In this document: positions 2,856 to 22,125 of the stretch, piece after piece | Layout of the letters: the number at the start of each line of letters is the position of its first letter | Position numbering within the stretch: position 1 is the first letter of the stretch | Source of the DNA: Aliivibrio fischeri ES114 | Lineage (GTDB): Bacteria; Pseudomonadota; Gammaproteobacteria; Enterobacterales; Vibrionaceae | DNA length: 32,000 nucleotides | Assembly: GCF_000011805.1 (NCBI RefSeq) | Contig: NC_006840.2 | Direction: 5' to 3' (one strand) | Notes under the pieces: generated by a model | Told to the model about the DNA's origin: nothing | What the model saw: the letters and a program-made list of their open reading frames with translations, nothing else | The model's database searches: none | Made by a program: the position numbers and the translations under genes

Positions 2856-3770
2856 ATGATGTGGTTTAAAAATTGTTTAATTTATCGTTTTACTAAAGAG
2901 ATTGACCTCAATCCAGAACAACTTGAAAAACAACTGAACGATTTTCGTTTCACGCCATGTGGCAGCCAAGATATGCAAAAATTTGGCTGGGTGACAGCAA
3001 TGGGCCGACACGGTGATATGCTGACTCACGTAGCAAGCAATAATATTCTTATCTGTGCCAAGAAAGAAGAAAAAATGCTTCCTGCATCTGTCATTAAAGA
3101 GTCAATGAATGCAAAAATTGATGCGCTTGAAGCAGAACAAGGTCGCCCACTAAAGAAAAAAGAAAAAGACGCAATTAAAGACGATATCGTGGTTGATTTG
3201 CTTCCTCGCGCATTCAGCAAACACCAACAAACGTATGCGTTAATCCTCCCTGAATCTGGCTTTATCATTGTCGATGCTGGCAGTTACAAAAAAGCAGAAG
3301 ACGTTTTAGCACTACTTCGTAAATCTATTGGTAGTCTACCTGTTGTTCCTCTAACATCGACTCAACCAATTGAGAATGCATTAACGGAATGGGTGAAAAC
3401 AGGCACTTGCCCTCAAGGCTTTGAAATGGGTGAAGAAGCCGAACTAAAAGCAATTTTAGAAGATGGCGGCGTGATCCGTTGTAAACAACAAGAACTTGTA
3501 TGTGATGAGATCCATGCTCACATTGATGCGAACAAAGTAGTTACAAAATTAGCGCTAACTTGGCAAGAACGTTTAGAGTTTATCCTTGCCGATGACCTGT
3601 CTCTAAAACGTTTAAAATTCAGCGATGAAATTAAAGATCAAAACGAAGATATTGGTTTTGAAGACAAAGCTGCACGCTTTGATGCAGATTTCTCTCTAAT
3701 GAGTTCTGAGCTTGATGCACTTCTACCTGATCTTTTCAAAGCACTTGGTGGCATTGAAGAGAAAGAGTAA
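2856..3770 (+). CDS. rdgC: Recombination-associated protein RdgC
   Basis: 304 aa. The N-terminus M(M)[10 protein letters not shown] matches the RdgC signature start (E. coli MLWFKNLMVYRL). The true start may be the second ATG at 2859. Confidence 0.88.
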
Positions 3771-8444: not shown

Positions 8445-10349
8445 TTACTTGTCTTTTACTTCTTCGAATTCAGCGTCTACTACATCGTCATCTTGCTTAG
8501 GTTGCTCACCTGCGTCAGCACCTTGTTGTGCTTGAGCTTTCTGTTGAGCAATTTCCATTAGCTTTTGCGCTGCTTGCATTAGCTCTTGAGTTTTCGCATC
8601 AATCGCTTCTTTGTCGTTACCAGATTTAACTTCTTCTAACGCTTTGATTGCTGCTTCAATTTTCTCTTTTTCATCAGCTGGAAGTGCATCACCTGCTTCT
8701 TCGATTTGCTTTTGAGTACCGTGAATCATTTGGTCTGCTTGGTTACGTGCTGTTACTAGCTCTTCGAACTTTTTGTCCGCGTCTTTGTTAGCTTCAGCTT
8801 CTTGTACCATTGCTTCGATTTCTTCGTCAGTTAGACCGCCTGAAGCTTGGATTGTGATCTTCTGCTCTTTACCTGTAGCTTTATCTTTTGCTGATACGTT
8901 TAGGATACCATCTGCATCTAGGTCGAATGTTACTTCGATTTGTGGCATACCACGTGGTGCAGGTTGGATACCTTCTAGGTTAAATTGACCTAGAGACTTG
9001 TTGTAAGTCGCTTGCTTACGCTCACCTTGAAGTACGTGAATAGTTACCGCACTTTGGTTGTCTTCAGCAGTTGAGAACGTTTGATCCGCTTTTGTTGGGA
9101 TTGTTGTGTTCTTCTCGATTAGCTTAGTCATCACGCCACCCATCGTTTCGATACCGAAAGATAGAGGAGTAACGTCTAGAAGTAGAACGTCTTTAACGTC
9201 ACCAGCTAGTACACCACCTTGAACTGCAGCACCCATTGCTACTGCTTCATCAGGGTTTACGTCACGACGAGCTTCTTTACCGAAGAACTCAGCAACTTTA
9301 GCTTGAACCATAGGCATACGAGTTTGACCACCAACTAGGATAACGTCAGTGATTTCGTCTACTGATAGGTCAGCATCTGCTAGAGCTACTTTTAGAGGCT
9401 CAAGAGAACGCAATACTAAGTCTTCAACTAGAGATTCTAGTTTTGCACGAGTAACTTTAACGTTCATGTGCTTAGGACCAGTTGCATCAGCAGTAACGTA
9501 AGGTAGGTTTACGTCAGTTTGTTGTGCAGAAGAAAGCTCGATTTTTGCTTTTTCAGCAGCTTCTTTAACACGTTGCATCGCAAGAGGATCGTTCTTAAGG
9601 TTGATGCCTTGCTCTTTTTCAAACTCAGATACTAAGTAGTTGATTAGACGGTTATCAAAGTCTTCACCACCTAGGTGTGTGTCACCGTTAGTTGCAAGAA
9701 CTTCGAACGTTTGCTCGCCATCAACATTGTCAATTTCGATGATAGAGATATCGAATGTACCACCACCAAGGTCGTAAACAGCGATAGTGCGATCGCCACC
9801 TTTTTTGTCTAGACCGTAAGCTAGTGCCGCTGCTGTTGGTTCGTTGATGATACGTTTAACATCAAGACCTGCAATACGACCAGCATCTTTAGTTGCTTGA
9901 CGTTGAGCATCGTTAAAGTAAGCAGGAACAGTAACAACTGCACCAGTTACTTCTTCGCCTAGGAAGTCTTCAGCTGTTTTCTTCATTTTCTTAAGAACTT
10001 CAGCAGATACTTGAGGAGCAGCCATTTTTTGGCCTTTCGCTTCTACCCATGCATCACCGTTGTCAGCTTTAACGATTTTGAATGGCATGATTTCGATATC
10101 ACGCTGTACTTCTTCATCTTCAAAACGACGACCGATAAGACGCTTAATAGCAAATAACGTGTTTTGCGGGTTAGTTACCGCTTGACGTTTAGCTGGTTGA
10201 CCTACAAGAGTTTCGCCATCTGTGTATGCAATTACCGATGCCGTTGTACGTTCACCTTCTGCGTTCTCCAAAACACGTGGCGTATCGCCATCAAGAACAG
10301 CAACACAAGAGTTAGTAGTACCTAAGTCAATACCAATGATCTTACCCAT
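8445..10349 (-). CDS. dnaK: Molecular chaperone DnaK (Hsp70)
   Basis: 634 aa with Hsp70 signatures [25 protein letters not shown] and [11 protein letters not shown]. Confidence 0.97.
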
Positions 10350-17432: not shown

Positions 17433-17799
17433 GGGGCTGATTCAGGATTCGACGGGAATTTTGAAACCCGAGGAGCATGTCGTGGGGCGGTTGGCCACGT
17501 AAAAAGCCGCAAAAAAATAGTCGCAAACGACGAAAACTACGCACTAGCAGCTTAATAACCTGCTGAGAGCTCTCCTGCCCTAGCTTCTGCTTGTAAGACG
17601 GGGAATAACAGGGGATCAAACCCAAACGAGCTAGAACGGATTCTCCCGCCTGAGAGATGAACTTCGAATTATAATTCAGGATAGCCATAAGATAGCGTGT
17701 CGGTTCGCAGTTTTACGGTGAAATCAAAGATCGACTAAACATGTAGCGCCAACGGTGAACGATTTTCGGACGGGGGTTCAAATCCCCCCAGCTCCACCA
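17433..17799 (+). ncRNA. ssrA: tmRNA (SsrA), 367 nt
   Basis: 5' GGGGCTGATTCAGGATTCGACGGG. Tag reading frame GCAAACGACGAAAACTACGCACTAGCAGCTTAA = ANDENYALAA-stop at 17523-17555. tRNA-like 3' end GGACGGGGGTTCAAATCCCCCCAGCTCCACCA. Confidence 0.97.
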
Positions 17800-17803
17800 A
17801 TTT

Positions 17804-17838
17804 AAACCCCTGTAATCAATAGGTTACAGGGGTTTTTC
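17804..17838 (+). terminator. ssrA intrinsic terminator
   Basis: Stem CCCCTGTAA (17807-17815) / TTACAGGGG (17824-17832) followed by TTTTT. Confidence 0.85.
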
Positions 17839-17894
17839 GTTTTAATGGCGGTTAAATGGCGGCTGTTTTTCGATAGGTATTAATAAATGATACT

Positions 17895-17988
17895 AATTAT
17901 TGGGTGGCGAACTGAGCAAGATTAGTCATACCGCTTCCAAGGATACGGCGCACCGAAGTGCTCTCACTCAGCCCACCATAATTTATTA
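17895..17988 (-). ncRNA. Structured RNA element, copy 1 (c4/CI-type antisense RNA candidate); core 17903-17977
   Basis: Minus strand: GGTGGGCTGAGTGAGAGCACTTCGGTGCGCCGTATCCTTGGAAGCGGTATGACTAATCTTGCTCAGTTCGCCACC. Closing helices GGTGG/CCACC and CTGAG/CTCAG, and an internal GCAC-UUCG-GUGC tetraloop hairpin. Shares conserved ends and the leader TAAATTAT with copy 2. Begins at the ant-like stop codon. Confidence 0.55.
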
Positions 17989-18534
17989 TTTACAGATTAA
18001 CCGAAGTTGTTCATTTACTGCATTCGCTATTTCAAGCAAATCCTTCACTTTAAAGAAACCAGGTTCTCTTACTATGCTTGGGATATCTGACGGAGCAAAT
18101 ACCATTGCATCATCAGGAACCGGAGTAACTGAAACCACGCTATCCATCTCTAACATGGTTAATATGCGAGTTCGTCTTTTTGGATGTGATTGCAAGTAAT
18201 CATTCTTTTGAGGACTGGTTTCTTTGTCTAATACATCCAATACCCATTTACGAAATTCTTTTGCTTTATTAGTTCGTGAGAACATAGCAAGCAAATGAGC
18301 GCCACGAAGAGAAAATATTCTTGCGTTTTGTTCGACGCCTCTAGGGTCGGTCAATTTGACCGAACCACTCATAGAAGAACTAAACTCATCGATATTTCTG
18401 GCATAAATTCGATTTAAAGCACTTGTATCTTTATAACCTAAAGCCGCTCCAATTTGAGATGCAGATAGCCAAATTTTATTATTTTGTTCAATAAGATTGA
18501 AATGAGTATTTTGAAAAGTAAGTTGATTGGTCAT
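17986..18534 (-). CDS. Phage antirepressor-like protein (BRO-N / P22 Ant N-terminal type domain)
   Basis: Start set to ATG 18534, with GGAGG SD 5 nt upstream; the ORF track used TTG 18546. MTNQLTFQNTHFNLIEQNNKIWLSASQIGAALGYKDTSALNRIYARNIDEF...RIFSLRGAHLLAMFSRTNKAKEFRKWVLDVL fits the antirepressor N-terminal domain pattern. The C-terminal half is unassigned. Confidence 0.6.
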   Translation of the reverse strand: MTNQLTFQNTHFNLIEQNNKIWLSASQIGAALGYKDTSALNRIYARNIDEFSSSMSGSVKLTDPRGVEQNARIFSLRGAHLLAMFSRTNKAKEFRKWVLDVLDKETSPQKNDYLQSHPKRRTRILTMLEMDSVVSVTPVPDDAMVFAPSDIPSIVREPGFFKVKDLLEIANAVNEQLRLICK

Positions 18535-18582
18535 AACGACCTCCAAGTGTCTAATTTTTATAAATCACCACTCAAAGGTATC

Positions 18583-18677
18583 AATCATTTGGTGGCGAAC
18601 CGAGCAAGGTTGATACTACCGCGACACAAGGAAAACGGCCCGAACGAATCGGCCTCACTCGGCCCACCATAATTTAG
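18583..18677 (-). ncRNA. Structured RNA element, copy 2 (c4/CI-type antisense RNA candidate); core 18591-18668
   Basis: Minus strand: GGTGGGCCGAGTGAGGCCGATTCGTTCGGGCCGTTTTCCTTGTGTCGCGGTAGTATCAACCTTGCTCGGTTCGCCACC. Same architecture as copy 1, but helix 2 is CCGAG/CTCGG (compensatory double change) and the hairpin stem sequence is different. Lies 56 nt upstream of the ant-like ATG. Confidence 0.55.
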
Positions 18678-18786: not shown

Positions 18787-18814
18787 ATTAAACGCAACAA
18801 AGGGAAACTGTCAA
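18787..18814 (-). promoter_or_regulatory. sigma70-type promoter (minus strand)
   Basis: TTGACA (18814-18809), a 16-nt spacer, then TTTAAT (18792-18787). Confidence 0.5.
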
Positions 18815-18852: not shown

Positions 18853-18879
18853 CCGAGGTACTCAAATTGAGTACCTCGG
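18853..18879. repeat. 27-bp perfect palindrome P-a
   Basis: CCGAGGTACTCAA-A-TTGAGTACCTCGG, with 13-bp arms and no flanking U-tract. Confidence 0.8.
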
Positions 18880-19050
18880 AAGGAATCACTTAAAAAACTC
18901 ATTTTTATTTGTGCATACGTGATCAATTTATTTATCTCTCAATCCAAACTGACCACTTACCTTCTTTATGGATTATCTTATGAAAACGTTTCTTCGTATC
19001 TTTTTGTCCTTGGCATTGGTTCTGTTCAGTTCACCTTTGTACTAATTATA

Positions 19051-19077
19051 CTGAGACGGTCAATTTGACCGTCTCAG
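19051..19077. repeat. 27-bp perfect palindrome P-b (probable terminator of the tail operon and/or operator)
   Basis: CTGAGACGGTCAA-T-TTGACCGTCTCAG, 17 nt downstream of the tape-measure stop. It abuts a perfect minus-strand TATAAT (19050-19045). The 15-nt core CGGTCAATTTGACCG recurs at 18348-18362. Confidence 0.8.
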
Positions 19078-19093
19078 TAACTTCAGTGAAATT

Positions 19094-20980
19094 CTAATAA
19101 CTCATGCTCATATTGCCGAGATTCAAATTTAAATCCGTGCCCTTTTCGCTTGTTACTTTATCCACGCTTACTTGCTTATCTGATTTAATTGTTAAACTGA
19201 CTTCTGATTGACTTCTTACGGTTTGATTTGTTAACGGTGCCGCTTTTGACATTGGAATAATATTGCCTGATAAACTTTGCTGCTGGGCCGTTGCTGAACT
19301 CGTGGTCGTTTGATTCACGGTTTCATCGGTTGTGATCCCAAGCTTGGCATTTTTATCTTTCAGGCTTGCCATCTTATCTTTGATTTTATCAACCTCAGCC
19401 CCTGCAGCATCCGCTGATGTTTTCCAACCATCTGGAATAAGAGAATCCGGTAACATATTAAATAGAGACTTGATACCATCTATCACCCCGCCAATACATG
19501 ATCTAACTACATTAAATATCGGTTCCAAGAGTTCTAATTTATCTAACAAATAAATTATACCAACTACTGCACCGCCAATTGCCGCCACCATCATCCCAAT
19601 TGGGTTTGCCATTATGACGGCATTAATTCCAATCAATGCAATTTTTACTATGGCGAGTGTAGCTAATATCCCTTTAAAGTTTTCAGACACAAACAGAATA
19701 ACGTTACCCAAAAACTTAAACGCATTGATGGTACCCGTTACCGTATCTCTCAACTTTGCTACCGCTTCATCTCTCCATTCTGTGTTTTTCATGTTCGTGG
19801 CCAGCGTGCCAAACATTACTGACAATTCTTTCATGATAGGAGTAAGCGCATGGATTTTTAAAGACTCAACAATAATCCCCATGGTTTTTATTGTTGAAGT
19901 GAACTCTGCAGCGCTCTTTGTTGATTCTTCACTAACTGGCCCACCTGTTTCTTGTAATTGTTGCCTCGCTTTATCTAACCCATCCGTTCCTGATTTAAGA
20001 ACGGCGAGCATTTTCTCACTGTCTCCACCAAAGAACTCATCAGCCATAAAGTTTTGCTTTGCGACATCTTTCTCTGCAGATATTTCACGAACTAATACTT
20101 GATAGGCTTCCATTGAGTTTTTTGCGTTTTTTAAATCTTCATACGCTTTTTGATTACCAGTATCTTTGAAGTAATCATTCATTGAACCTGAGCCAAAAGA
20201 TTTCATCTCACCCCAGCGCAATGTCATTTCTTTTAATGCGGCATCCATATCACCCGCTTCGGCATTAACCCCTTTCGCTTGAAGCCTTAGTGCTTGCAAC
20301 TCACCCACTGGCATGCTGATGTCTCTTGCTGCACTTGATAATTCATTTATCTTATCTGCAGTTTCTGTGACTGCTGCACCAACCCCCGCTAACGAACCAA
20401 TCATAGCAATACTGCCAACTGCCATGCCTTGGCTCTTTTCAAAACTAGGCATCTTAATAGATTTACTTAAACGATTTAGCGGTGACATTGTGGCTTGTAA
20501 TCGTTCATATCGCTTGCTAACAACATCAATTCGCTTTGCGTGATGTAACTGACTTTTAGATAAGCGGTCAAACTCATTATCTAACTTACTAACATCTACC
20601 CCTGTTTTTTGCATTCGCTTACTGGTGTCATGAAGGGCATTTTCATAGGCCTTATGATTATCAGCAAGCTTATCCACTTTCTCTTGTTGCTTTACTAGCT
20701 TATTAGTTAGTGCTGCACTTGGCTCGTCTGTTTCCGCCATTTGCTGTTTAAGTTTAAGTAAGGCTTCGGCTGCGGCTTCTCCCTCTAATGCGTTTTTATC
20801 CAGCTCTTTTTGTATTTGTTGATATGATGCGATCATCGTTAATGCGGCCGAATCATCCGATTGCGCTTGCTGAATCGACTTGATTTTTTTCGCATAATAA
20901 TCTGAATCACTGCTCATGGTTTTTAATGGCTTTGTTGTTTTGTTTACAACATCCATTACAACCGATAAATTCATTTTCAT
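19094..20980 (-). CDS. Phage tail tape measure protein
   Basis: 628 aa. Long alpha-helical coiled-coil N-terminus, central hydrophobic segments (ILATLAIVKIALIGINAVIMANPIGMMVAAIGGAVVGIIYLL). Positioned immediately after the gpE/E' chaperone pair. AGGAAA SD. Confidence 0.85.
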   Translation of the reverse strand: MKMNLSVVMDVVNKTTKPLKTMSSDSDYYAKKIKSIQQAQSDDSAALTMIASYQQIQKELDKNALEGEAAAEALLKLKQQMAETDEPSAALTNKLVKQQEKVDKLADNHKAYENALHDTSKRMQKTGVDVSKLDNEFDRLSKSQLHHAKRIDVVSKRYERLQATMSPLNRLSKSIKMPSFEKSQGMAVGSIAMIGSLAGVGAAVTETADKINELSSAARDISMPVGELQALRLQAKGVNAEAGDMDAALKEMTLRWGEMKSFGSGSMNDYFKDTGNQKAYEDLKNAKNSMEAYQVLVREISAEKDVAKQNFMADEFFGGDSEKMLAVLKSGTDGLDKARQQLQETGGPVSEESTKSAAEFTSTIKTMGIIVESLKIHALTPIMKELSVMFGTLATNMKNTEWRDEAVAKLRDTVTGTINAFKFLGNVILFVSENFKGILATLAIVKIALIGINAVIMANPIGMMVAAIGGAVVGIIYLLDKLELLEPIFNVVRSCIGGVIDGIKSLFNMLPDSLIPDGWKTSADAAGAEVDKIKDKMASLKDKNAKLGITTDETVNQTTTSSATAQQQSLSGNIIPMSKAAPLTNQTVRSQSEVSLTIKSDKQVSVDKVTSEKGTDLNLNLGNMSMSY

Positions 20981-21028: not shown

Positions 21029-21425
21029 TGTTGGTGTCGAACTCGCGCTTCTTCTCGAAATAAAATTAAATCGCTTAAGCTGAGTTTATCTATTTCACTT
21101 GGCTGCCAATGAAACACCACTGCTAGGTCGGCGTAATACGTTTCAACCCGCTCAATTAGCGCTTCATATCCACGAAAAAAGAGGCTATTTCCGTCATTAA
21201 TGGGGCGAAGTTTTCAGTCTCCATATTCAAAATATCTCGCTCATTTAATTCGGAGATACGAGGAAGTAAGATATATACCGCATCAAAATGCATTTCACAT
21301 ACCTGGACTAAATTCAAACCACGCAGATCACCAGCTGTCGGTTTGCGAAGCTCTAACTCTGATACTTCTTTACCATCCACTTCCATCGGTGTTGCCAGTT
21401 TTACTTTGAACATTTTATTACTCAT
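21016..21425 (-). CDS. Tail assembly chaperone gpE+E'-like fusion made by programmed -1 frameshift
   Basis: Slippery heptamer T_TTT_TTC at 21180-21174 (minus), near the end of gpE. The -1 frame continues open as RGYEALIERVETYYADLAVVFHWQPSEIDKLSLSDLILFREEARVRHQQEST-stop (TAG at 21018-21016). The position equals that of the P2 TTTTTTG site. Confidence 0.7.
21156..21425 (-). CDS. Tail assembly chaperone gpE-like (zero-frame product)
   Basis: 89 aa. ...ELELRKPTAGDLRGLNLVQV...LLPRISELNERDILNMETENFAPLMTEIASFF parallels remembered P2 gpE (LMKPSAGTLRGVSL...LPRMT...VVGFL). The start overlaps the upstream gene stop. Confidence 0.8.
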   Translation of the reverse strand: MSNKMFKVKLATPMEVDGKEVSELELRKPTAGDLRGLNLVQVCEMHFDAVYILLPRISELNERDILNMETENFAPLMTEIASFFVDMKR

Positions 21426-22125
21426 GCCCTAACGCCTCTTTTAATTCTTTTACTCGGATTTTACGTCCGCCTTTATTTGGATCAATGGCCATCACGACTT
21501 CATACAATGCCAATGCTTCTTCGTTCATTTCAGCATCAAACAGTAGATCACCCGCGAGGCGAAACATTTTCACTTTTAGTGGTGCATTAGTAGCAAGTTT
21601 GCCTTCCAGCACATCGTTAACCGCACCACTTAACAACGCCGTGTTAAACGTTTTTTTGGCTTTATACGCTTCTTCTGAATATTTAAAAACAATATCACAA
21701 TACGCAGTTTGTCCATTTGACTTCCAATTTGCAGGGGTATTTAACCCACTCAAAATGGCCGCTTTAAAATCATCATGAATTTGCAATAAGAAACCACAAT
21801 CCACTTGCCACTGATAAAACCACCAAACTACATCAAGCCCTTCCAGATTATTGCCATGTGACTTGAGCAACTTGTTTATCAGTGGGGTGTATTTTTTTAT
21901 GAGTTCTTTTTTAAATGGCACTTTTTCGTTAGAACCAGCGAGCGTTCTTGAGTATTCCAAATCCATTTTTAAAATATTCTGGATCTCATCCCACGGCTTT
22001 TCTTCTAGCGGCGCTCTTGGTGCTGGTGTCAATTCGGCTTCTACTCGTTCCATTTCATTTAATTGGACTTGGTGAATATCTTGCTTTGCCGTTCGAGCCT
22101 TTCGTTTCAATAATAACGTGTACAT
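21418..22125 (-). CDS. gpM-like terminase small (endonuclease) subunit, in an atypical position
   Basis: 235 aa. By eye the pattern parallels remembered P2 gpM: K.ELI....P.....L......L.....WW...W..D.G.......D.......GL..P and a C-terminal ...LKVKMFRLAGDLL....EEAL.LY..........G.K.RVKELKEAL. This rests only on memory of the Phage_term_smal family. Confidence 0.5.
   Translation of the reverse strand: MYTLLLKRKARTAKQDIHQVQLNEMERVEAELTPAPRAPLEEKPWDEIQNILKMDLEYSRTLAGSNEKVPFKKELIKKYTPLINKLLKSHGNNLEGLDVVWWFYQWQVDCGFLLQIHDDFKAAILSGLNTPANWKSNGQTAYCDIVFKYSEEAYKAKKTFNTALLSGAVNDVLEGKLATNAPLKVKMFRLAGDLLFDAEMNEEALALYEVVMAIDPNKGGRKIRVKELKEALGHE

Follow-up and report, generated by a model that had tools for sequence, protein, structure and literature searches.

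The DNA analysed here (the window) is a stretch of 32,000 nucleotides (nt) from contig NC_006840.2 of Aliivibrio fischeri ES114. Where a P2-like prophage in this stretch meets ssrA, the minus strand bears an antirepressor gene, ant, with a C4-type antisense RNA gene on either side. C4-type RNAs are a classic form of RNA-based phage immunity, and differences between their loops explain the heteroimmunity of phages P1 and P7. The C4 upstream of ant (copy 2) is part of a standard, Rfam-recognised module in which an IsrK/c4-a1b1 element, a C4 and an antirepressor gene follow one another; this half of the locus is not new, and it very probably operates as an IsrK-C4-ant switch. The unusual part is the C4 downstream of ant (copy 1), which lies in the 3' untranslated region (UTR) of ant and lacks an IsrK leader, a b2 site with a Shine-Dalgarno sequence, and a gene; it is rare and conserved, and it is not a new kind of system. 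The reading put forward here, tentatively and with slightly more doubt than confidence, is that the locus as a whole is the C4 antisense-RNA immunity module of the prophage together with an extra, trans-acting C4 of heteroimmune specificity.

The specificity of a C4 lies in two segments: b', the loop of hairpin 2, and a', the 7-8 nt between hairpin 2 and the 3' strand of the outer stem. In a complete module these segments face sites a1 and b1 upstream of the C4 and a2 and b2 downstream of it. The features of the ES114 locus are the following (bp, base pairs; aa, amino acids; sRNA, small RNA).

18787-18814, minus strand: predicted promoter, TTGACA (18814-18809), 16-nt spacer and TTTAAT (18792-18787), with the predicted start at about A18780
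18699-18778, minus strand: IsrK-like 5' leader/sRNA directly upstream of copy 2 (RF01394, 55.3 bits, gathering score 50)
18753-18746, minus strand: a1, UUGAUACU, in the loop of hairpin 2 of the IsrK-like element, complementary to a' of copy 2
18735-18729, minus strand: b1, AACAAGG, complementary to b' of copy 2
18588-18674, minus strand: C4 copy 2, canonical (RF01695, 69.4 bits, E 1e-11, model positions 1-87)
18634-18623, minus strand: b' loop of copy 2, UUUCCUUGUGUC
18617-18610, minus strand: a' of copy 2, AGUAUCAA (GUAUCAA core)
18535-18587, minus strand: ant leader, which holds a2 and b2
18584-18578, minus strand: a2, UUGAUAC
18551-18540, minus strand: b2, GACACUUGGAGG, which spans the Shine-Dalgarno sequence GGAGG (18544-18540)
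17986-18534, minus strand: ant, antirepressor gene, 182 aa, with a Bro-N domain
17900-17983, minus strand: C4 copy 1, orphan, in the 3' UTR of ant (RF01695, 61.5 bits, E 9e-10, model positions 1-87)
17944-17935, minus strand: b' loop of copy 1, AUCCUUGGAA, with the core CCUUGGAA
17929-17922, minus strand: a' of copy 1, AUGACUAA (ACUAAUC core)
17890-17898, minus strand: a2-like remnant, AAUUAGUAU, at the normal a2 distance after the CCACC of copy 1

A reading made earlier from the sequence alone (the sequence-only reading) had described two C4-like structured elements on the minus strand, and had proposed a search with the Rfam C4 and isrK models and a test for covariation across homologues. 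Membership of RF01695 was defined as a full-length match at or above the Rfam gathering score of 45 bits; both C4s lie above this score over the whole model, and the search also returned the IsrK-like element. The minimum free energy fold of each copy is the C4 architecture (-36.5 kcal/mol, z -4.8, for copy 1; -37.1 kcal/mol, z -3.4, for copy 2), and the plus strands fold much more weakly (-24.4 and -25.6 kcal/mol, respectively). The conserved termini that had been pointed out are present in both copies, which form a 32-nt direct repeat with 84% identity and share the context AUUAU/GGUGGG, with an RNase P-type GGU. The differences between the copies were also read correctly: one pair of the outer stem is compensated, U-A in copy 1 and C-G in copy 2, and the stems of hairpin 1 are unrelated, GCAC-UUCG-GUGC in copy 1 and CCGA-UUCGU-UCGG in copy 2.

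Additional C4s were gathered with a purpose-built covariance model (R1). The fold of the family consists of a 17-bp outer stem, a tetraloop hairpin and the b' hairpin. In the family alignment 99.1% of cells are paired, 16 of the 26 pairs have double changes, compensatory changes occur in all three helices, and none of 500 shuffles reached the observed values. The pairing of the loops with flanking targets was evaluated on 51 non-redundant modules, with mismatched C4/flank pairs as the control. A perfect complement of at least 7 nt to a' was found upstream in 92% and downstream in 100% of the modules, and a complement of at least 6 nt to b' was found upstream in 86% and downstream in 84%. All four pairings were present in 67% of the native modules, compared with 0.5% of the mismatched pairs. 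In one of the collected modules, L166, there are two UUGAGAC sites for a' (GUCUCAA), namely a1 within the hairpin 2 loop of the IsrK element and a2 about 6 nt past the CCACC. There are likewise two UUCCAAGG sites for b' (CCUUGGAA), namely b1 in an IsrK single strand and b2 at the Shine-Dalgarno sequence of the gene; a second module, L164, has the same double-target layout in another sequence. The rule that C4 loops pair with flanking targets thus holds over dozens of modules, and the covariation of loop and target over many specificities is strong support, at the level of sequence comparison, for a P1-type mechanism.

The complements of copy 2 are distributed in the same way: 8 nt upstream (a1) and 7 nt downstream (a2) for a', and 6 nt (b1) and 5+5 nt (b2) for b'. 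The pairing of its loop with GACACUUGGAGG over the Shine-Dalgarno sequence, already proposed in the sequence-only reading, consists of 5 bp, a 2x2 mismatch and 5 bp, with a duplex energy of -13.5 kcal/mol versus -6.7 +/- 2.0 kcal/mol for shuffled loops (RNAduplex). The duplex of ES114 is broken by two U-U mismatches, whereas that of a relative, L001, is an uninterrupted 11 bp; on this account ES114 may repress ant a little less strongly. As had been suspected, ant itself encodes an antirepressor, matching Pfam PF02498 (Bro-N, 7.9e-15) and PHROG 5060 ('anti-repressor Ant', 2.3e-38). The IsrK-like element has an intrinsic terminator at its end (stem 18720-18704, followed by a U7 run). The sequence-only reading did not mention this element, nor the a' segment with its a1/a2 partners, nor the a2-like remnant that follows copy 1; RF03163 (c4-a1b1) itself was not reported by the Rfam search of the window. 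The promoter site, TTGACA-16-TTTAAT, was read by eye and was not listed by a stricter consensus promoter scan; a TTGAC(A/T) hexamer stands at equal distance before the IsrK element in L166, L164 and L102. Three Vibrio phages (L001-L003) and Gifsy-1 likewise have an IsrK element, a C4 and an antirepressor gene in this order. The CCACC of copy 2 ends at 18591 and the ATG of ant is at 18534-18532, which leaves the 56 nt counted earlier. With so short a distance from C4 to ant, and with b2 on ant's own Shine-Dalgarno sequence, the locus does not have the c4-icd-ant arrangement of P1 immI in the strict sense: it works like immI, yet it is not an immI operon proper.

A perfect 27-bp palindrome, CCGAGGTACTCAATTTGAGTACCTCGG in minus-strand reading, lies at 18853-18879, 39 nt upstream of the -35 hexamer of the IsrK promoter, and its arms are altered together in a related locus, L294 (CTGAGG...CCTCAG). 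The prophage repressor may use it as an operator, much as C1 controls the c4-ant operon of P1; alternatively, it may form a hairpin in RNA.

Copy 1 begins 2 nt after the stop codon of ant (TAA, 17988-17986), where the sequence-only reading had placed it. Because the ant coding sequence reaches within two bases of copy 1, there is no space for a promoter and an IsrK leader. A search of its flanks for targets of its own gave longest complements of just 4, 6, 6 and 3 nt, with no a1 or b1. The a2-like remnant was compared with the leaders of L164 (CCACCCAGCGAUUAGUACC), L294 (AAUUAGUACC) and L295 (AAUUAGCACC); the likeness to a leader stops directly after AAUUAGUAU, no b2, Shine-Dalgarno sequence or open reading frame (ORF) follows it, and a conserved attachment-site (att) arm starts about 10 nt further on. 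Against the ES114 ant leader, b' of copy 1 reaches -5.8 kcal/mol, which is background and agrees with the lack of complementarity noted earlier; since copy 1 does not pair with this leader, the two copies are orthogonal. Copy 1 is a member of the C4 RNA family but not a complete immI-type module.

Close relatives of the locus are scarce, and three versions of an ant gene with a downstream C4 were recovered: ES114, L294 (an ENA metagenome contig) and L295/L296 (Logan assemblies from five samples). No relatives came from exact-pattern scans of viral contigs for b' and a' of copy 1 taken as one cassette, or of viral and metagenome contigs for the ant-stop/C4 junction and the att arm; the family is rare outside Aliivibrio assemblies. 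The Ant protein of L294 is 80% identical to that of ES114 and is encoded in a syntenic prophage that ends in ssrA, in the order IsrK, canonical C4, ant, and a second C4 at the stop codon; in the canonical C4 of L294 the b specificity is new, and b1 and b2 have changed along with it (CCUUUGAA vs UUCAAAGG). L295/L296 (L295, 1-860) is a natural deletion variant: a deletion of about 0.5 kb has removed the promoter, the IsrK element, the canonical C4 and the first ~57 codons of ant, despite which the C4 after the ant stop is intact.

In ES114, L294 and L295 alike the downstream C4 begins 2 nt past the ant stop. Identity among the three versions is 93-100% over the final 70 nt of ant and over the 120 nt that lead to ssrA, and only 77-87% over the orphan interior. 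The differences between the orphans are confined to hairpin 1, in which all four pairs are replaced by other pairs, to one outer-stem pair (A-U vs G-C), and to b' and a', and the fold is perfect in every version (z -3.8 to -5.5). The orphan of L295 combines orphan-type termini with the interior and loops of the ES114 canonical copy; it is a recombinant. Evidently the conserved C4 termini let whole specificity cassettes be exchanged.

An exact search with the b' hairpin of copy 1 identified nine phage C4s with an identical loop, and in these phages the loop faces UUCCAAGGAGG at the Shine-Dalgarno sequence of the controlled gene. L164, a prophage of Photobacterium phosphoreum that was found through this loop, has a C4 that controls a Rha-family gene, and its leader runs GAUUAGUACC...UUCCAAGGAGG and then into rha. 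The a sites of L164 read GAUUAGUAC, to which ACUAAUC of copy 1 is complementary over 7 nt. In total, copy 1 matches the L164 module over 7/7 nt at the a sites and 9/9 nt at the b sites, a match at the native level, and its b' forms duplexes of -13.9 kcal/mol with the leaders of L164 and L166. The a2 remnant beside copy 1 (AUUAGUAU; AUUAGUAC in L294) is an a2 of the L164 type, and together with the L164-matching loops it makes the orphan look like the front end (C4 plus a2) of an L164-type module. Copy 1 had been suggested to be a heteroimmune variant, a decoy or a decayed copy, and these suggestions agree with its lack of cis targets and its match to the targets of the L164 phage.

Neither the 32-kb window nor the roughly 30 kb of prophage DNA that were fetched, out to the integrase, contained an a+b site pair for copy 1; only self-antisense matches appeared there. 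L302, L303 and L304 also lacked such a pair. A gapped target-pattern scan gave just chance-level matches and was not used. Several candidate targets were rejected. A AUUAGUAC...CCAAGGA pair at ~19040-19010 on the minus strand is expected by chance 0.2-0.3 times, by estimate, and shows no covariation in L294/L295. L303 and L304 have a contiguous UUAGUUCCAAGG site, which chance would explain equally well. Regulation of the integrase across attP, in the manner of lambda sib, was set aside: in this prophage family int and the ant operon converge, and about 1 kb lies between att and the start of int (L303).

Comparison with other loci shows where copy 1 departs from the common pattern. About 65 of ~160 Ant-homologue loci have one C4 located 50-150 nt upstream of ant, and no C4 was found after an antirepressor stop codon among the ~160 loci around Ant homologues. 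In a further sample of 75 C4s, in which enterobacterial modules were recognised by their a1/a2 complementarity, every member (75/75) has at least an a1 or a2 partner in cis. Orphans made up 4 of the ~130 C4s examined. Only one other true orphan was found beyond the ES114-type locus, in L102 (Psychromonas aquimarina, 3615-3697; the same element is at 8019-8101 of L298). It is a target-less C4 that follows a glutaredoxin-like gene, at ~54 nt from its stop codon, and directly precedes the promoter of a complete IsrK-C4-ant module, on an island whose integrase is convergent with ant.

The sequence-only reading had not recognised a pair of different C4s around ant as something described. That judgement stands for the orphan copy, which is unusual, and does not stand for the rest, since the upstream half is known and several C4s per locus are common in the form of arrays. 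In L320 (9700-11210), three full IsrK-C4-gene modules follow one another 656 nt apart, with an a' and b' that differ from module to module, and two-module arrays are present in at least nine other loci (L316, L308, L346, L314, L367, L343, L381, L020 and L123). The arrayed C4s control paralogous short ORFs of roughly 100 codons, one after each C4, and the tandem modules look like arrays of orthogonal RNA switches. We know of no published description of such tandem arrays, which were seen here in IMG/VR contigs.

The position of the locus was examined in its genomic setting. ssrA, the tmRNA gene to which the sequence-only reading had drawn attention, is at 17433-17799 on the plus strand (ARAGORN; RF00023, 250.9 bits) and is the integration site of the prophage. 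It is immediately preceded by smpB, and the genes to its left belong to the Aliivibrio fischeri ES114 host (RecN, BamE and RatA, with identical products). All DNA to the right of ssrA is a P2-like myovirus prophage, with genes in the order tape measure, tail chaperone, tube, sheath, head-tail connectors, capsid, scaffold, terminase and portal, followed farther along by baseplate and fibre genes, replication genes, a cro/cI switch and the integrase; the 628-aa product of 19094-20980 is VF_2004. The ant module is at the ssrA end of this prophage on the minus strand. The interval from the tape measure gene to attP is a slot for variable cargo, and in a sister prophage from Aliivibrio sp. S4MY4 (L305) the same slot holds a 68-aa gene and an Aca2/HigA-like gene, with no C4. 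The closeness of the C4/ant locus to ssrA does no more than reflect the attachment site. Two further features lie on the ssrA side of the slot.

17841-17862, minus strand: direct repeats CCGCCATTTAA and CCGCCATTAAA, at the start of the conserved att arm bounding the cargo slot
17804-17835, strand unspecified: hairpin terminator of ssrA (terminator prediction)

The direct repeats sit between the cargo slot and the ssrA terminator and are kept in L294, L295 and L305 despite the different cargo of L305; they are candidate, and likely, arm-type integrase sites of attP. The ssrA terminator read in reverse is the sole hairpin able to end the ant-C4 transcript, and its minus-strand U tract is poor (UUUAAAUU, 17800-17842). 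Read-through past it would give an RNA antisense to the 3' end of tmRNA.

Transcription, processing and repression at this locus are predicted by analogy with P1/P7 and Gifsy-1. A single promoter would produce the IsrK-like leader, ending at its terminator, with read-through into copy 2 and ant. RNase P would then excise the C4 at AUUAU/GG, as in P1/P7, and the likely cleavage site of copy 2 is before G18668. The a' and b' segments of the excised C4 would pair with a2 and b2 in the ant leader and block the Shine-Dalgarno sequence; no Ant would be made and the prophage repressor would stay active. The IsrK-like RNA, with a1 and b1, would hold or titrate the C4, as IsrK does in Gifsy-1. Copy 1 would most likely still be made, by co-transcription with ant and release by RNase P, and it would act in trans only, silencing the C4-controlled gene of heteroimmune phages that have GAUUAGU and UUCCAAGG sites. 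Its origin would be the front end of a Photobacterium phosphoreum-type module, imported or cut off by recombination.

If copy 1 is active, it would be a prophage-borne RNA repressor aimed at the lysis-lysogeny switch of another phage, a simple and swappable form of inter-phage interference in a strain, ES114, that is genetically tractable. A more specific proposal is that the orphan is a dedicated cross-immunity RNA holding the cassette of a competing phage, with which a prophage that is firing Ant silences heteroimmune Ant/Rha switches, and that recombination through the termini swaps cassettes in an arms race. We regard this extended version as unlikely.

Among the explanations of copy 1, action in trans is favoured, a functionless truncated module is a close second, and a role in cis at the 3' end of ant is third. 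That the orphan has some function in trans is itself possible, with the doubt somewhat the heavier, and several observations weigh against it. Copy 1 has no promoter of its own and is downstream of a gene that copy 2 should silence, and its level in a lysogen may be low; it may form mainly once the switch has already been thrown, unless the sole promoter-like site before it (TGAACA-17-AATAAT, 18013-17985), which is no better than chance, is real. Since L164 was found by means of the b' loop of copy 1, the match at the a sites is the sole independent one, and ~9% of random module pairs show a match of this kind. The matching target module comes from Photobacterium and not from Aliivibrio, and none of the collected loci has a module that matches the orphan of L294 or that of L102. 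The orphan a' and the adjacent a2 remnant have also diverged, to 6 nt of complementarity in ES114 and 4 nt in L294, which is the outcome expected from relaxed constraint. This drift equally favours the explanation that copy 1 is a functionless leftover, from a module that was cut past a2 when the ant cassette recombined into the cargo slot, and that it is undecayed or has been refreshed by gene conversion. The end of the leader likeness after AAUUAGUAU with the att arm just beyond, the missing b2, Shine-Dalgarno sequence and ORF, the unrelated cargo in the same slot of L305 and the lack of a target in ~30 kb of prophage point the same way, and the mosaic orphan of L295 points to recombination rather than to selection in place. 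Were this so, the locus would be an ordinary member of a known family. A leftover would not, however, account easily for three orphan versions that keep a perfect C4 fold at 13-23% divergence, with all stem changes compensated, nor for loops that make up whole, undegraded specificity cassettes (the b' loop of copy 1 recurs exactly in nine phage C4s), nor for the survival of the orphan in L295 through a deletion that removed the rest of the module. It is a real possibility, though one that we lean against.

The remaining explanations are less probable still. As a tRNA-like substrate of RNase P, copy 1 could act in cis, with no pairing to a target, by fixing the 3' end of the ant mRNA; removal of the terminator hairpin by the cut would determine how stable the mRNA is and limit the duration of Ant production. 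Its position in all three relatives, beginning 2 nt past the ant stop, is consistent with this, as are the L102 orphan, which also follows the stop codon of a gene (glutaredoxin-like, ~54 nt), and the cutting of P1/P7 C4 precursors by RNase P (Hartmann 1995, as cited in PMC5320573). Such a role is improbable: it does not need intact a'/b' cassettes or their swapping from strain to strain, and L295 keeps the orphan though its ant has been destroyed. Recruitment of copy 1 to regulate a host or prophage gene elsewhere, an idea published for the C4-like sRNAs of Acinetobacter baumannii (PMC5320573), was considered because of dnaK (8445-10349). At the predicted 5' end of the dnaK transcript, directly after a sigma-32-like promoter (CTTGAA-N13-CCCTTATTA), AUUAGUCAUA (10440-10431, minus strand) is a 10-nt perfect complement to a' of copy 1, with a duplex energy of -10.9 kcal/mol that is reached by 0.8% of shuffles. 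Yet chance alone would give ~0.18 such 10-mers in the window, nothing around the Shine-Dalgarno sequence of dnaK pairs with b' (-6.6 kcal/mol, background), a' differs in L294 and L295, and an a+b site pair is absent from the window and the rest of the fetched prophage. The dnaK complement is probably due to chance, dnaK was rejected as a target, and recruitment of this kind is very improbable. That the repeats are DNA recombination sites (att or inverted repeats) rather than RNA genes had been named as something that would overturn the RNA interpretation. The conserved termini do seem to provide homology for interior exchange, as in the L295 mosaic, but the strand-specific folding, the compensatory changes in all three helices across the family, the loop-to-target covariation, the Rfam scores and the location of the L295 deletion end points away from the C4 repeats argue against it, and we consider it extremely unlikely.

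Several other observations were made in the vicinity of the locus. A small-terminase-like gene at 21418-22125 on the minus strand (Pfam Phage_term_smal, PHROG 74) is located between the tail tube and tail chaperone genes, an odd position for a packaging gene, and L294 and L305 have the same order. On the strand opposite to the ant module, a 25-aa hydrophobic ORF, MDYLMKTFLRIFLSLALVLFSSPLY (18968-19045, plus strand), is followed by a strong hairpin, ACTGAGACGGTCAATTTGACCGTCTCAGT (19050-19078). This ORF has conservative changes in L294 and L295, is absent from L305 with its other cargo, and has no Pfam match; it may encode a small membrane peptide or be a type I toxin-like gene. A 15-bp palindrome, CGGTCAATTTGACCG, occurs twice, inside ant (18348-18362) and in the hairpin after the tape measure gene (19057-19071), and one junction of the L295/L296 deletion is at the copy inside ant.

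The c4-immI system of P1 and P7 (Citron & Schuster 1990; RF01695) has the features found or predicted in ES114: an RNA of ~77 nt, folded into a long outer stem plus tetraloop and b' hairpins and co-transcribed with its target, whose a' and b' pair with a2 and b2, with b2 on the ribosome-binding site and a1/b1 upstream, and which controls an antirepressor. Loop differences between the c4 RNAs of P1 and P7 give heteroimmunity (PMC5320573, PMC12197685), and the C4 precursors of both phages are RNase P substrates according to the citation of Hartmann 1995 in PMC5320573. The ES114 phage is P2-like and located at ssrA, unlike the P1 type, which is a plasmid prophage. The target of c4 in P1 is the upstream gene icd, with polarity onto ant, whereas b2 of ES114 covers ant's own Shine-Dalgarno sequence. 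We know of no second c4 in P1. The CI RNA of P4, like C4, is cut from the transcript that it regulates, and an internal sequence pairs with repeats before and after it (seqA, seqB and seqC); it acts by transcription termination and not by blocking a ribosome-binding site, and no tool result obtained here matched it.

Two other groups have several C4-type RNAs. Acinetobacter baumannii AB5075 has 21 dispersed C4-like sRNAs, most with a conserved 5' 'Region 1', which are apparently processed at GGW and for which incoming phages or host mRNAs have been proposed as targets (Weiss 2016, PMC5320573). They resemble the ES114 copies in having a C4 fold and variable loops; unlike copy 1, they are not described there as lying in the 3' UTR of an antirepressor gene under another C4. 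The tandem IsrK-C4-gene arrays have several C4s of different a'/b' per locus with a short gene between them, as in ES114, but each arrayed C4 has its own IsrK element, a1, a2, b1 and b2 sites and gene, and copy 1 has none of these. A literature search for C4 in V. fischeri or for VF_2003-2005 found nothing relevant.

The Gifsy-1 prophage of Salmonella has the order IsrK, orf45, anrP and isrJ (Hershko-Shalev 2016, PMC4825925) and shares with ES114 an IsrK with a terminator and a Bro-N type antirepressor, with a C4 between them. Rfam detects isrK, c4-a1b1 (RF03163, 'a1, b1 targets of C4 antisense RNA') and C4 in Gifsy-1, followed by anrP. An sRNA gene, IsrJ, follows the antirepressor there too; IsrJ was rejected as a counterpart of copy 1, being a hairpin plus terminator (RF01393) and not C4-like. 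Translation of anrP is described as coupled to orf45, whereas the equivalent ORF of ES114 (29 codons, 18670-18581) ends 47 nt before ant, and ant has its own Shine-Dalgarno sequence. No mention of C4 was seen in the term-searched passages of PMC4825925, for which 'c4' itself is unusable as a term. By coordinates, orf45 begins at the conserved AUG in the C4 leader (AAUUAUGG; 34073-34214 of L004, which is Gifsy-1) and reads through the C4 to the start of anrP. On these coordinates the processed ~80-nt 'orf45/STnc1160' fragment coincides with the Gifsy-1 C4 RNA, which makes the orf45/STnc1160 region of Gifsy-1 the C4 RNA and IsrK its a1/b1 partner, the same pair that stands upstream of ant in ES114.

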